Below are positions 3,368 to 62,723 of a stretch of 64,000 nt of DNA, piece by piece. Source of the stretch: Escherichia coli (GTDB lineage Bacteria; Pseudomonadota; Gammaproteobacteria; Enterobacterales; Enterobacteriaceae); the NCBI RefSeq assembly GCF_044647545.1, contig NZ_CP172818.1; one strand, given 5' to 3'. Position 1 is the first letter of the stretch. Every line of letters starts with the position of its first letter. A model generated the notes under the pieces. It was not told the DNA's origin. It made no database searches and was given only the letters and a program-made list of their open reading frames with translations. Made by a program: the position numbers and the translations under genes.

Positions 3368-3432
3368 AAAAAAAGGGCCTAAAGCCCAGTTATTCTGTAG
3401 TCAGATAACAAAAAACCCCGATAAATCGGGGC
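3368..3432 (-). terminator. Two tandem hairpin plus U-run structures between metY and rimP (intra-operon terminators/attenuator)
   Basis: Minus-strand RNA: ccccgau-uu-aucgggg followed by uuuuuug (3410-3432), and a weaker gggc...gccc hairpin followed by U7 (3368-3387). Confidence 0.5.
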
Positions 3433-3556
3433 TTTATATAACTGAACCCTATAACCGCAACTGCGGTCTGGAGCACTTTCCAGAAGGATTTTTTCAAATC
3501 CCACTACGAAGGCCGAAGTCTTCACAGTATATTTGAAAAAGGACTCTAAGGGAAAG

Positions 3557-3633
<77 letters not shown>

Positions 3634-7413: not shown

Positions 7414-7500
7414 TGGTACCGAGGACGGGACTTGAACCCGTAAGCCCTATTGGGCACTACCACCTCAAGGTAGCGTGTCTACCAATTCCACCACCTCGGC
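7414..7500 (-). tRNA. leuU: tRNA-Leu, 87 nt with long variable arm
   Basis: Reverse complement reads GCCGAGGTGGTGGAATTGGTAGACACGCTACCTTGAGGTGGTAGTGCCCAATAGGGCTTACGGGTTCAAGTCCCGTCCTCGGTACCA. Confidence 0.9.
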
Positions 7501-14149: not shown

Positions 14150-14190
14150 GCAAAAAAAATACCGACCCGGGTACAGGTCCCAGGTCAGCT
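14150..14190 (-). terminator. graL: Terminator-like hairpin plus U8 in the greA leader (expected 3' end of the GraL leader RNA)
   Basis: Minus-strand RNA gaccugg...ccggguc hairpin followed by gguauuuuuuuug, about 95 nt upstream of the greA start codon. Confidence 0.4.
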
Positions 14191-14305
14191 ACAATTCACA
14201 TTTTGATAGTCATTTTACCCTGAAGTTCCCGAAGGGTCATCGTTTACTTTATAGGGCGTTGCGCCGTAGTATGACGGCTCGATTCCAGGTTGTTAGCGCG
14301 AGATT

Positions 14306-34275: not shown

Positions 34276-35000
34276 TCCAGCTGGTGTTGTTGCATAAACG
34301 ACTCACCGCCTAACTGATACATCTGCCGTAAAATCCACGCCTGACGGCTACGCACGTAGCCCGATGGCGCGGAGACTTTGAAACGAAGTGGATTAGGTAA
34401 TACAGCTGCCAGTAATGCAGCTTCCGACCGGGTAAGCTTGCTCGCGGGTTTGTGGAAATAACGTTGTGCCGCAGCTTCGACGCCAAACACACCGTCGCCA
34501 AATTCGGCGATATTCAGGTAAACCGTCAGGATACGCTTTTTGCTCCAGACCGTTTCTATCCCCAGCGTTAATCCAGCTTCCAGCCCTTTTCGAACCCAGC
34601 TACGCCCATCCCATAAAAAGAGATTTTTGGCAGTCTGCTGAGAAATCGTTGAAGCACCGCGAATACGGTTTTCATTGCGCTCGTTGTGCGCCAGGGCTTT
34701 CTCAATGGAAGCGACATCAAAGCCCCAGTGCTCAGGAAATGTCTGATCTTCTGCGGCAATCACCGCCAGTCCCATCCACGGCGAGATTTGATCCATACTG
34801 ACCCAGTCAGAATGTGCCACGTAACGAAAATTGCCATGCAGCCAGGCGCTGACCTGTCGCTCGACCATTACCGCTGAGAAAGGAACAGGCGCAACGCTAA
34901 ACAACGCGATGCCCCCGCCCCAAAAAACGGCGAGGACAACCATTAACCGCAAAAGAAAACGGCGAACGAAACTAAACACCGTTAAGCGGCTTTTACTCAT
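34272..35000 (-). CDS. mtgA: Monofunctional peptidoglycan glycosyltransferase MtgA
   Basis: 242-aa ORF with N-terminal TM segment and transglycosylase motifs ...[16 protein letters not shown]... and [13 protein letters not shown]... Confidence 0.9.
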
Positions 35001-35650
35001 TCAGCCAGAACCAGCACGCGGGAAACCAGCTTATCAATGCCGCTCGCCGCTTCTGCAATGTTCTGCGCCAGCATATATGCCGGGGTGGTGACAATCTTAT
35101 TGTCTTCATCAACCACGATATCATCGACAGGACACGGCACATGCTCCGCGCCCATCTCTTCCAGCACTTCTGCGGTATCAATATCAGTACCGATGGTCAA
35201 ACGCAGCGGGAAATCGAAAATTTTCGGCAGCATCGCCGGGGCAATACACATAAAACCAAGCGGTTTTCCGGCCTGATGCATCGCTTGTGCCAGCGCCTTT
35301 AATTCACGGTCAACGGTGCATTCGCGACCAAGACTGGCAAAATTGCTTAAATTCTTCGCCGCGCCAAACCCCCCCGGCACAATCAACGCATCCAGTTCAG
35401 CGGCATCGGCCTGGGCCAGAGGACGGATTTCACCGCGCGTTATTCGTGCCGCTTCAATCAGCACATTGCGCGTTTCCGTCATCGCTTCGCCCGTTAAATG
35501 GTTGATAACATCAACCTGCTGCTTATCCGGTGCAAAGCAGACCGCCTGCGCACCGCTGCGTGAAATAGCTAACAACGTCAACACCGCTTCATGAATTTCA
35601 GAACCGTCATAAACGCCGCATCCGCTCAGAATTACGCCAATTTTCTTCAT
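34997..35650 (-). CDS. elbB: DJ-1/PfpI-family glyoxalase-like protein ElbB
   Basis: ORF ...[78 protein letters not shown]...; start moved to MKKIGV (217 aa); overlaps mtgA start. Confidence 0.85.
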
Positions 35651-35767
35651 TGTGATCATCCTTTCGCAATTGACTGAAACACATTAATTTTTTTAATAAA
35701 AATGCTACGCATCACACATTTAACTGATTCATGTAACAAATCATTTAAGTTTTGCTATCTTAACTGC

Positions 35768-35888
35768 GTGCGGCCTGAAAAACAGTGCTGTGCCCTTGTA
35801 ACTCATCATAATAATTTACGGCGCAGCCAAGATTTCCCTGGTGTTGGCGCAGTATTCGCGCACCCCGGTCTAGCCGGGGTCATTTTTT
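35768..35888 (+). ncRNA. arcZ: ArcZ (RyhA/SraH) Hfq-dependent sRNA, convergent with and overlapping the arcB 3' end
   Basis: Sequence GTGCGGCCTGAAAAACAGTGCTGTGCCCTTGTAACTCATCATAATAATTTACGGCGCAGCCAAGATTTCCCTGGTGTTGGCGCAGTATTCGCGCACCCCGGTCTAGCCGGGGTCATTTTTT, ending in a hairpin plus T-run. Confidence 0.8.
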
Positions 35889-38216
35889 AGTGGCTTTTGC
35901 CACCCACGCTTTCAGTACTTCTACGTCGTGACGCCACTCTTCTTTCATCTCTTCAATCCATTCACCGACGTTATCTTCCCAGGCGGGAAGGTCAGGAGAC
36001 TGAATTTGCTGACCCAGCTGTTGCAGATGGCGTAACCCCACTGACCCCGCCGCACCTTTAATTTTATGTCCTTCCTCAACAATGCCTTTTTTATCCTGCG
36101 CCGTCAGATTCGACTCCAGCACGCTGACATAGCCCGGCATCATCTTCTCAAACACCGCTAACCCGTCGGTGATCAGCTTCGGTCCTACAAGTTCGAGATA
36201 CTGTTCCAGCATGGGAATATCGAGCAATGCTTCTGATTTACTGTTCTCTTCTGTCGTCACCGTACTTTCCTCATCATCCTGGGTATCCCAGAATTTCTTG
36301 ATCATCGCGGTTAGCGCCGGAACAGAAAGCGGCTTACTCAGCACATCATCCATTCCAGCATTGAGGTACTCTTGTTTGTCTTTCAGCACGTTAGCGGTTA
36401 AGGCCACCAGCGGTGGTAAATCCTCGCGCGGATAACGCTTCGTCAGTTCACGAGAGATATCCAGCCCGGTCATATCTGGCAACTGAATATCCAGCAACAC
36501 CAGGTCGTATTCGCCCGGTTTAAACATCTCCAGCGCCGCCTTGCCGGTCATGGCGACATCAACGCTGTTACCTAATTTTTCCAGCACAGAGCGTGCGACA
36601 ATCACGTTCAGTTCAATGTCTTCCACCAGCAGCACATTCAGCGCCGGTAAAGGCATATCGTCTTCATCAAACGCATCATCAACCTCTTCTGCTACCGACG
36701 GTGCGTGGATCGTCAACGTAAAGGTTGAACCTTTGCCCTGTTCGCTGGTAACCGTAATATCGCCGCCCATATTTTTCGCCAGACGACGAGAAACGGCCAG
36801 ACCAATACCGGTGCCGGTGGCAGGTTTACCGCCATGACTGTCTTTCACCTGGTAATACATGGCGAAGATTTTATCCAGCTCATCCTGCGGAATGCCGATA
36901 CCAGAGTCTTCCACTTCAAAATGCAGCATATCGCCTTCATCGTAGCGCACGCGCACGGTAACCTGGCCTTGCTGGGTGAATTTGACGGCGTTACTGATGA
37001 GGTTCCACAGGATCTGCCGTAAACGCGTCCCGTCGGTAATGACCTGATGCGGTAATGGCAGCGTCGGCTCCAGATTAAAGCGCAATCCTTTTTGTTGCGC
37101 CTGCAAGGCGGAGAGATTTTCCAGATCGGCAAGGAAGCTGGTGAAATCAACCGGCTGATTATCAAGCTGGACCTTGCGCCGTTCCATCTTATCCATGTCG
37201 ATAATATCGTTGAAGATATTCCCCAGCGTGACGGCCGAAACATGGATGGTTTTGAGGTATTTTTCCTGCTCGGCGGTGAGTTCGGTATCCAGCAGAATGC
37301 GGCTCAGGCCGACGATACCATTCAGCGGTGTACGCAATTCGTGACTGATGGTGGAGATAAACGTCGTTTTGTCGCGGCTGGCCCGTTCAAGCGCATCCTG
37401 ATACCGCTTACGCTCGGTAATGTCGCGACCAAAGCCCATCAAACCGTGACGTTTACCCACGCGGTCGTAGTACGGCACTTTACGGATTTCAAAGCAGGCT
37501 TTGCGCCCGTCCGGGTAATCCAGCCACTGTTCATAGGTCAGTGACACATTATGACGGAACACTTTTTCATCGGTTTCAATGACTTTTGCGGCGGCTTCCG
37601 GTGAGTAAACATCAGCAGGTTTCAGGTGAACCAGTTGTTTTTCGCTTTTTCCGGTCAGCAGCTCCATCGCGCGGTTACAGCCGGAAAACTCTTTATCTTC
37701 GTTACGATAAAAAACCAGGTCGGGTGAAGCATCAAGGAAGGAACGTAAGAATGAGGATTGCTGCTCGAGCTGAATTTGTGTCTCTTCGCGCTCTTTGATT
37801 TCAATTTTCAGTTGGCCGAAGGTTTCCTGCAGTTCTGCTTCCGCTTTTTCACGAACGGCGATTTCCTGATTTAGCTGGGCAATATTATCTTTTAACTGAA
37901 CGTTGAGGCTCAAATCGCGCTCGCGCATCTCCTCCAGTTTTTGCACCAGTCGTGACAGACGTTGCCGTGACTCCTCCAGTTGCTCGACGACCACCGATAG
38001 AAAGTAGACCGCCCACGGCGTAATCAGCAAACCAAAGAAGATAGAACGAATAACATCAATGCTTTCGACCTGACCATGCAGCACCATGGTTACCGCCATT
38101 TGTACCACAATGGCAAGAACGACGAGGGCCAGCGCCAGCAACATTGAGAAGCGCACCAGACCTAACTTCATCATCAGGTCAACATAATACTGCGCCAGCA
38201 GACGAATTTGCTTCAT
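35880..38216 (-). CDS. arcB: Aerobic respiration control sensor histidine kinase ArcB
   Basis: 778-aa ORF MKQIRLLAQYYVDLMMKLGLVRFSMLLALALVVLAIVVQMAV...; HisKA H-box ISHELRTPLNG, receiver domain and C-terminal HPt domain. Confidence 0.95.
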   Translation of the reverse strand: MKQIRLLAQYYVDLMMKLGLVRFSMLLALALVVLAIVVQMAVTMVLHGQVESIDVIRSIFFGLLITPWAVYFLSVVVEQLEESRQRLSRLVQKLEEMRERDLSLNVQLKDNIAQLNQEIAVREKAEAELQETFGQLKIEIKEREETQIQLEQQSSFLRSFLDASPDLVFYRNEDKEFSGCNRAMELLTGKSEKQLVHLKPADVYSPEAAAKVIETDEKVFRHNVSLTYEQWLDYPDGRKACFEIRKVPYYDRVGKRHGLMGFGRDITERKRYQDALERASRDKTTFISTISHELRTPLNGIVGLSRILLDTELTAEQEKYLKTIHVSAVTLGNIFNDIIDMDKMERRKVQLDNQPVDFTSFLADLENLSALQAQQKGLRFNLEPTLPLPHQVITDGTRLRQILWNLISNAVKFTQQGQVTVRVRYDEGDMLHFEVEDSGIGIPQDELDKIFAMYYQVKDSHGGKPATGTGIGLAVSRRLAKNMGGDITVTSEQGKGSTFTLTIHAPSVAEEVDDAFDEDDMPLPALNVLLVEDIELNVIVARSVLEKLGNSVDVAMTGKAALEMFKPGEYDLVLLDIQLPDMTGLDISRELTKRYPREDLPPLVALTANVLKDKQEYLNAGMDDVLSKPLSVPALTAMIKKFWDTQDDEESTVTTEENSKSEALLDIPMLEQYLELVGPKLITDGLAVFEKMMPGYVSVLESNLTAQDKKGIVEEGHKIKGAAGSVGLRHLQQLGQQIQSPDLPAWEDNVGEWIEEMKEEWRHDVEVLKAWVAKATKK

Positions 38217-62426: not shown

Positions 62427-62723
62427 TTACAATGACCACATCTCAAGAATGTGTAGTCACGCAAGTTTAGCGTTTATGCATTTAATTGCCGTAATCAGGA
62501 ACCTAACTTACGTAATTAACAGTCGCTTATGCATTAGCGCAACATTCCAACAGGTGGTGACAATATACCCTACCGTTCAGCCAAAACAACATCAATTTGA
62601 TAACAATTAATTTACTTTTAAGCAGAATTTGCATGCCGTGACGCAGGCATGTTTCTCAATAACGAAATTTGATAAAATCCCGCTCTTTCATAACATTATT
62701 TCAGCCTTCTTCAGGGCTGACTG

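Follow-up and report, generated by a model that had tools for sequence, protein, structure and literature searches.

A convergent arcZ small RNA gene and its nine-nucleotide overlap with arcB in an Escherichia coli genome

Introduction

In enterobacteria, the small RNA ArcZ ties oxygen and redox sensing by the ArcB/ArcA system to the RpoS general stress response, motility, mutagenesis and virulence. The molecule is bound by Hfq and matured by RNase E, and it is only the resulting 56-nt form that regulates targets (PMC11331407, PMC5222698). Translation of rpoS is activated through competition of ArcZ with an inhibitory hairpin in the leader (PMC4281340), and in rGRIL-seq ArcZ, encoded between elbB and arcB, ranked first among the sRNAs ligated to the rpoS mRNA (PMC8545128). 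In this regard, DsrA and RprA behave like ArcZ, as both are Hfq-dependent and activate rpoS through base-pairing to the inhibitory hairpin of the leader at its upstream arm, and RprA is also matured by RNase E (PMC4281340, PMC5222698). Their sequences and loci are, however, unrelated to those of ArcZ, they respond to temperature (DsrA) and to Rcs (RprA), and neither of them is known to have a cis-antisense partner gene. For this last feature a closer parallel is found in GadY/gadX, where an sRNA gene and a protein-coding gene likewise converge and the sRNA is complementary to the 3′ UTR of the mRNA (PMC3937726, PMC4152358). The outcome for the partner mRNA differs, with stabilisation or processing in the case of GadY and a lowered level of the arcB mRNA in that of ArcZ, which in addition has a large set of targets in trans.

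Here we describe the arcZ locus in a window of 64,000 nt, the whole stretch of DNA that was analysed, from an E. coli genome (GCF_044647545.1, contig NZ_CP172818.1), and establish the identity, anatomy and conservation of the gene, the covariation of its terminator and, by folding, the exposure of its seed after processing. Publications already cover the gene, its processing and targets as well as its antisense relation to arcB, and the sequence-only reading that this analysis followed up was right in calling the ArcZ gene and its interplay with arcB known biology. For discovery the locus brings nothing new; the insertions of IS1 in the arcZ promoters of K-12 derivatives and the absence of a recognisable ArcA box are of modest interest.

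Identity of the Gene and Its Neighbours

An Rfam scan of the whole window gave a match to RF00081 (ArcZ) at 35768-35875 on the plus strand, with 120.8 bits (E = 4.1e-27) and covering positions 1-106 of the 106 of the model; the gathering score of this family is 66 bits, at or above which a match over the full model counts as a member. The model ends within the terminator, and the gene itself extends to 35888. Alignment with the known ArcZ, which the sequence-only reading had proposed as a check, showed that the stretch 35768-35888 (GTGCGGCCTGAAAAACAGTGCTGTGCCCTTGTAACTCATCATAATAATTTACGGCGCAGCCAAGATTTCCCTGGTGTTGGCGCAGTATTCGCGCACCCCGGTCTAGCCGGGGTCATTTTTT) is identical at 121 of 121 positions to arcZ (b4450) of MG1655 (3350577-3350697, +). 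Over 241 nt around the gene the sole difference from MG1655 lies at 35705, 63 nt before the arcZ start, where a C is found here and a G in MG1655.

The genes involved are the following:

35768-35888, plus strand: arcZ primary transcript (aliases SraH, RyhA), 121 nt, from Rfam RF00081 and identity to b4450
34997-35650, minus strand: elbB, upstream neighbour divergent from arcZ, from the NCBIfam ElbB equivalog (357 bits), with the start taken from the MG1655 annotation
35880-38216, minus strand: arcB, sensor kinase of the ArcB/ArcA system, convergent with arcZ, 778-aa ORF, from NCBIfam NF008302 and the MG1655 annotation

The product of arcB matches the NF008302 ArcB equivalog with 1483 bits against a cut-off of 838, and the MG1655 annotation of arcB (3350689-3353025, −), which has 9 nt in common with arcZ, maps exactly onto the coordinates given above. 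Between the elbB start codon and the start of arcZ there are 117 bp, the mechanical elbB ORF reaching 35659, and mtgA comes next after elbB in the same orientation as arcB and elbB (−). The RF00081 match and the identification of both neighbours thus bear out what had been read from the letters, namely that the ArcZ sequence occupies the plus strand of the elbB-arcB spacer, and so does the 778-aa ORF for the end of arcB, which had been placed at 35880.

The covariance-model score, the complete identity to the annotated K-12 gene and the synteny together support the identity of ArcZ, and we are practically certain that 35768-35888 (+) is arcZ, which stands as a gene of its own and encodes a small regulatory RNA dependent on Hfq. 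Compared with ArcZ of E. coli K-12 (b4450, RF00081), the locus has the same neighbours, 9-nt overlap, RNase E site, seed and terminator, with no difference within the gene. In what follows, the transcription start, Hfq dependence, RNase E cleavage, targets and arcB feedback, like the expression of ArcZ in stationary phase under aerobic conditions, are those of the literature on the K-12 sequence, which is identical to arcZ of the window.

The gene is nearly universal in the species: a 261-nt query spanning the locus found a match in 5416 of 5426 complete E. coli genomes, with arcZ covered to at least 80% in all 5416 and at least 99% identical in 5395. Of the 5417 arcZ matches, one falls on a record classified as plasmid, and ten complete genomes gave no match. 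As for annotation, every sampled RefSeq E. coli record (PGAP) lists only arcB under the arcZ match, and the curated MG1655 record has an ncRNA feature. Correct recognition of arcZ matters in this respect, since the sampled PGAP-annotated genomes leave it unannotated.

Processing and Folding of the RNA

Five elements describe the transcript upstream of its terminator and the form that processing would release:

35787-35827, plus strand: 5′ stem-loop in which GCUGUGCC (35787-35794) pairs with GGCGCAGC (35820-35827), the first helix of the Rfam consensus structure
35831-35835, plus strand: RNase E maturation site GA↓UUU, recognised by motif, with predicted cleavage between A35832 and U35833
35833-35888, plus strand: processed active ArcZ of 56 nt (121 − 65), predicted from GA↓UUU and matching the published form in size
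35836-35851, plus strand: conserved seed box CCCUGGUGUUGGCGCA, exact match
35847-35861, plus strand: short stem-loop GCGC-AGUAUUC-GCGC, from folding

The 3′ arm of the 5′ stem-loop stops 5 nt before the RNase E cut. This GA↓UUU site was mapped in vivo and in vitro, together with the 56-nt form of ArcZ, by Chao et al. 2017 (PMC5222698), and a 2024 review restates it and describes the seed box as the conserved element after the cleavage site (PMC11331407). The processed 3′ fragment of about 55 nt that the sequence-only reading had expected agrees, at the level of the motif, with the 56 nt predicted here. Divergence in the seed had been named there as the observation that would count against ArcZ, and the box is present without a single change.

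When the 56-nt form is folded alone its first 14 nt are unpaired, and in the full-length RNA the minimum-energy fold has these bases paired. A seed that is unpaired in the 56-nt fold and paired in that of the precursor fits the published proposal that processing frees it (PMC11331407, PMC5222698).

The Terminator and the Overlap with arcB

The 3′ end of the RNA comprises two further elements:

35862-35880, plus strand: intrinsic terminator hairpin with a stem of 8 pairs, core CCCCGG/CCGGGG at 35863-35879 and loop CUA, from a terminator scan
35880-35888, either strand: region common to both genes, read as the ArcZ 3′ tail UCAUUUUUU / TCATTTTTT on the plus strand and as arcB AAA AAA TGA (Lys-Lys-stop) on the minus strand, from sequence and annotation

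The hairpin CCCCGGTCTAGCCGGGG occurs once in the window, and a search of both strands of 35500-36100 for terminator-like sites returned only the one at 35862-35880 (+), with the tail CATTTTTTAG. There are six U inside this tail. A terminator with a U-tail constitutes the 3′ Hfq-binding module of class I sRNAs.

Seen from arcB, the stop codon takes up 35880-35882 (TCA, the complement of TGA) and the six T that follow (35883-35888) correspond to two Lys codons on the minus strand, the C-terminus of ArcB being ...AKATKK. An overlap of the hairpin together with its T-run with the last arcB codons had been proposed at the outset, which is correct for the 9-nt tail and not for the hairpin core: the latter lies just outside the arcB coding sequence, in the would-be 3′ UTR, and the stop codon is reached solely by the optional A-U pair (U35880) with which the stem closes. 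The review gives the arcZ-arcB overlap as ‘usually ten bases’ (PMC11331407), and it is 9 nt here. A literature search found no description of arcZ/arcB as a bidirectional terminator.

Conservation across Enterobacterales

A scan for the 16-mer seed in a genome collection of 298 Gb gave 120 loci, about half of them chance matches in unrelated phyla, which is to be expected with a 16-mer in a collection of this size; from these loci the true arcZ loci were kept by means of the flanking GCGC[A/G]CCC motif. Besides MG1655, 56 such loci were obtained, among them loci of Yersinia, Serratia, Dickeya, Photorhabdus, Xenorhabdus, Proteus, Providencia, Pantoea, Erwinia, Hafnia and Edwardsiella. The 3′ half of ArcZ, from the UUU to the U-tail, is nearly invariant in them, and the 5′ half is not alignable. 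The seed CCCUGGUGUUGGCGCA was the search key, hence its invariance in the 56 loci is by construction; the UUU of the RNase E site that flanks it is invariant too, and the flanking GCGC...GCGCACCCC is likewise conserved. Because there is no variation at any of the four pairs of the GCGC stem, this element is uninformative for covariation. The terminator, on the other hand, is paired in 99.5% of cells of the 56 loci, with compensatory changes from G-C to A-U at two pairs (13 and 12 sequences), and sliding its partners by 1-3 columns makes the paired cells drop to 27-47%.

Folding each sequence by itself, as distinct from a structural alignment, gave a 5′ stem of 7-12 bp ending 4-6 nt before the cut in most of the 56 species. 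Its arms differ from one species to another (e.g., UUUACUCGCC/GGCGAGUAAA and CUAGUUACGCA/UGCGUAGCUAG), and a stem kept despite different arms supports a structural role for it. RNAalifold on a MAFFT alignment, in which the 5′ halves are too divergent to be aligned, did not recover this stem. Altogether, ArcZ of Salmonella and of other Enterobacterales (Yersinia, Serratia, Dickeya, Photorhabdus, Xenorhabdus and Pantoea, among others) has the same 3′ half, terminator, position convergent with arcB and stem 5′ of the cleavage site as the RNA of the window, whereas outside Enterobacteriaceae the 5′ half diverges from it almost wholly in sequence and length.

The overlap with arcB is also widespread. 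In 43 of the 56 other loci the arcB stop (TGA or TAA) abuts the hairpin, ArcB ends in KK and the overlap comprises 9-11 nt, in agreement with the ‘usually’ of the ten-base overlap in the review (PMC11331407). The stop does not abut the hairpin in the other 13: it lies at least 4 nt further downstream in 12 of them (overlap of at most 2 nt), and in Pantoea sp. 1.19 the ORF search put it within the hairpin. Non-abutting loci are found in Pantoea (six), Tatumella (two), Mixta, Rosenbergiella, Morganella, Hafnia, Pluralibacter and Superficieibacter. Where the stop is further downstream, all loci except that of Rosenbergiella (TAA) retain a T(C/T)A ahead of the T-run, which hints that the retained trinucleotide may matter to ArcZ itself.

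Two by-products of the seed scan can be mentioned at this point. In Mixta sp. Marseille-Q2659 the ArcZ seed occurs a second time, at a site distant from arcB (L085, 1746-1790, +), followed by a short GCGC stem and a terminator of its own (ACCCCGCATTACGCGGGTTTTTTTT), preceded by AT-rich sequence and located about 70 bp from an IS1 end. The copy scores below the Rfam gathering score and resembles a paralogue of the 3′ half of ArcZ, one for which processing by RNase E would be unnecessary. In Serratia oryzae (L049, 1247-1277), the seed 16-mer lies on the strand opposite to a gene, at 10 nt from its start codon. The predicted leader UGCGCCAACACCAGGGAAAUUGUAUUACAUG is a perfect complement of at least 24 nt of the ArcZ of this species, including the seed, and covers the ribosome-binding site, which makes the gene, whose product begins MKKTKNPHQAILGALYGQAVGDAMGMPSELW, a candidate ArcZ target.

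Putative Promoter of arcZ and Control by ArcB/ArcA

Two elements of a putative promoter were found upstream of the gene:

35733-35738, plus strand: −35-like hexamer GTAACA, four of six matches to TTGACA, 17 bp upstream of the −10, read from the sequence and invariant in 17 Enterobacteriaceae loci
35753-35761, plus strand: extended −10 TGcTATCTT, with TGc at 35753-35755 and the hexamer TATCTT at 35756-35761, from cross-genus conservation

We infer both hexamers from comparison and spacing. The promoter would be of the extended −10 type, as recognised by its conservation across genera, and the spacing to the published transcription start suggests GTAACA as its −35-like element. Six nt separate the end of TATCTT from the start at G35768. 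The sequence TTGCTATCTT is unchanged across all 17 aligned Enterobacteriaceae genera, where a block of about 50 bp (35711-35761, −57 to −7) is nearly invariant and the remaining elbB-arcZ spacer varies; this block could additionally serve the promoter of the divergent elbB. A sigma-70 consensus scan requiring at least 9 of 12 matches found no arcZ promoter. In published work, the route used to knock out arcZ was a ‘-10 promoter mutant’ (PMC3937726).

The same promoter is a site of insertion of IS1, which was found within it (window equivalents 35747-35759) in 54 of the 5426 complete E. coli genomes, for the most part laboratory derivatives of K-12, as a result of at least two independent insertions; the promoter of the window itself has none. 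The first insertion, at the equivalent of 35747-35754 and with an 8-bp target duplication (AAGTTTTG), is that of the K-12 laboratory derivatives C600, GM4792, RV308, NEB Turbo, CV601 and DTU-1 (in GM4792, an E. coli K-12, the element occupies L123 489-1256). It brings a hexamer of the IS1 end, TTGGCA, to exactly 17 bp upstream of the retained TGcTATCTT, and both could form a hybrid promoter separated from the conserved upstream block. The second insertion, in the UPEC strain HSP60 (L122, 2233-3000), has a 9-bp duplication (TTGCTATCT) and leaves just 12 bp as spacer, a distance that probably weakens the arcZ promoter. The same strain also carries arcZ G5A.

Repression of arcZ by ArcB/ArcA under low oxygen has been reported, including by genetic means (PMC11331407, PMC4281340). 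The sequence-only reading, in which ArcB is the kinase that controls the repressor of arcZ, is in line with published data as far as repression by the system is concerned. For an ArcA box, the promoter should have two or more direct repeats similar to TGTTA whose centres are 11 bp apart; simple consensus scans of 35650-35770 found none, either as GTTAATTAAATGTTA with up to 3 mismatches or as TGTTA-N6-TGTTA with up to 2, and in the ChIP-seq data of Park et al. 2013 the region upstream of arcZ is without an ArcA site (PMC3798270). The sequence thus lends no support to direct repression by ArcA, and binding of ArcA at the arcZ promoter is less certain than the repression itself. The best match of the window to the 15-mer ArcA consensus is GTAAATTAATTGTTA at 62601-62615 (−), with 2 mismatches, and such matches are as numerous as chance predicts.

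Function of ArcZ and Its Interplay with arcB

A working model for the locus can be assembled from these elements and the literature on K-12. Transcription from the extended −10 promoter would begin at G35768 and stop at the plus-strand intrinsic terminator, giving a precursor of 121 nt. The 5′ stem-loop would end just before GA↓UUU, where RNase E, guided by Hfq, would cut to leave a stable 3′ fragment of 56 nt with its first ~14 nt, including the start of the invariant seed, single-stranded. This fragment would pair in trans with target mRNAs, opening the inhibitory hairpin of the rpoS leader for translation and repressing tpx, sdaC, flhD and mutS among other targets. Since arcZ is convergent with arcB and has its last 9 nt in common with the stop region of that gene, ArcZ would be a perfect complement of the arcB mRNA at its 3′ end, a pairing that would lower the level of this mRNA. 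With repression of arcZ by ArcB/ArcA under low oxygen, both regulators would be connected through mutual negative regulation.

For the step at rpoS, the best RNAduplex energies between ArcZ and the MG1655 leader did not surpass those of shuffled ArcZ (199-869 of 500-1000 shuffles as good). The inputs were the 56-nt form and seed segments of 21-34 nt against the full 567-nt leader and its last 150 nt, with accessibility ignored, and the best sites had long internal loops. The method is uninformative for this pairing, which we take from the literature.

For the step at arcB, ArcZ is described as lowering the mRNA by pairing with its 3′ UTR and 6 nt of coding sequence, in the passages of three papers that cite Mandin & Gottesman 2010 (PMC4281340, PMC3937726, PMC4152358). 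These 6 nt plus the stop codon equal the 9-nt overlap seen at 35880-35888. In the opposite direction, the arcB mRNA has been speculated to act as an antisense RNA that destabilises ArcZ (PMC11331407). The antisense interplay between the sRNA and the kinase gene that had been read from the arrangement has accordingly a published counterpart in the destabilisation of arcB mRNA by ArcZ (PMC4281340, PMC3937726, PMC4152358).

Accounts in which arcZ has no such role were also considered. The hairpin and its flank might merely be the 3′ end or terminator of arcB, with no independent RNA gene on the plus strand, as the hairpin follows directly on the arcB stop, is a near-palindrome that also folds in the minus-strand RNA (−20.1 kcal/mol, z = −3.9) and is preceded on that strand by an A-run. 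The T-run, however, follows the hairpin on the plus strand only, the minus-strand stem is followed by UGCGCGAAUAC, and the scan gives no terminator on this strand. Moreover, the full-length covariance-model match (+) reaches 95 nt upstream of the hairpin, the promoter and the seed of arcZ are conserved, the ArcZ transcript and its targets are documented experimentally (PMC11331407, PMC5222698, PMC8545128), and a plus-strand transcript ending at the equivalent of 35888 has already been reported for the identical K-12 sequence, so that we give this account next to no credence. It is just as hard to believe that the region codes for a small protein. A 62-aa ORF (35702-35890, +) is present in the mechanical ORF list, but it matches no NCBIfam family, its ATG precedes the mapped transcription start by 66 nt, and the 5′ half in other genera contains numerous indels and substitutions by which the stem is preserved and the reading frame is not; for these reasons it was rejected as a coding gene.

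A different question is whether the convergent overlap acts chiefly through transcriptional interference, either by collision of polymerases or by arcB read-through that silences the arcZ promoter, instead of through RNA-RNA pairing. No minus-strand intrinsic terminator exists between the arcB stop and elbB, and arcB transcription may therefore cross the whole of arcZ and its promoter, co-directional with elbB-mtgA; from the same lack we infer that the arcB 3′ UTR probably covers more of arcZ than 9 nt. Against this, Rho could terminate arcB transcription, and the literature credits destabilisation of the arcB mRNA by ArcZ and, speculatively, antisense action of the arcB mRNA on ArcZ (PMC11331407, PMC4281340, PMC3937726, PMC4152358). 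The papers found on arcZ/arcB support antisense destabilisation at the RNA level, and none was found that tests transcriptional interference, which we regard as an improbable main role of the overlap. A broader proposal is that arcB, devoid of an intrinsic terminator of its own, is transcribed through arcZ and its promoter into elbB-mtgA and that the locus forms an excludon-like switch, in which ArcZ and the read-through RNA would antagonise each other over at least 120 nt, arcZ transcription would gate elbB-mtgA and the Lys-Lys-stop end of ArcB would be held in place by the U-tail of ArcZ. We put it forward tentatively, as an unlikely scenario.

Apart from ArcZ, the Rfam scan of the window gave four further matches above the gathering score, namely the greA leader at 14154-14275 (−) with 125.8 bits, the rimP leader at 3368-3468 (−) with 102 bits, and tRNAs at 3560-3633 (−) and 7417-7500 (−).
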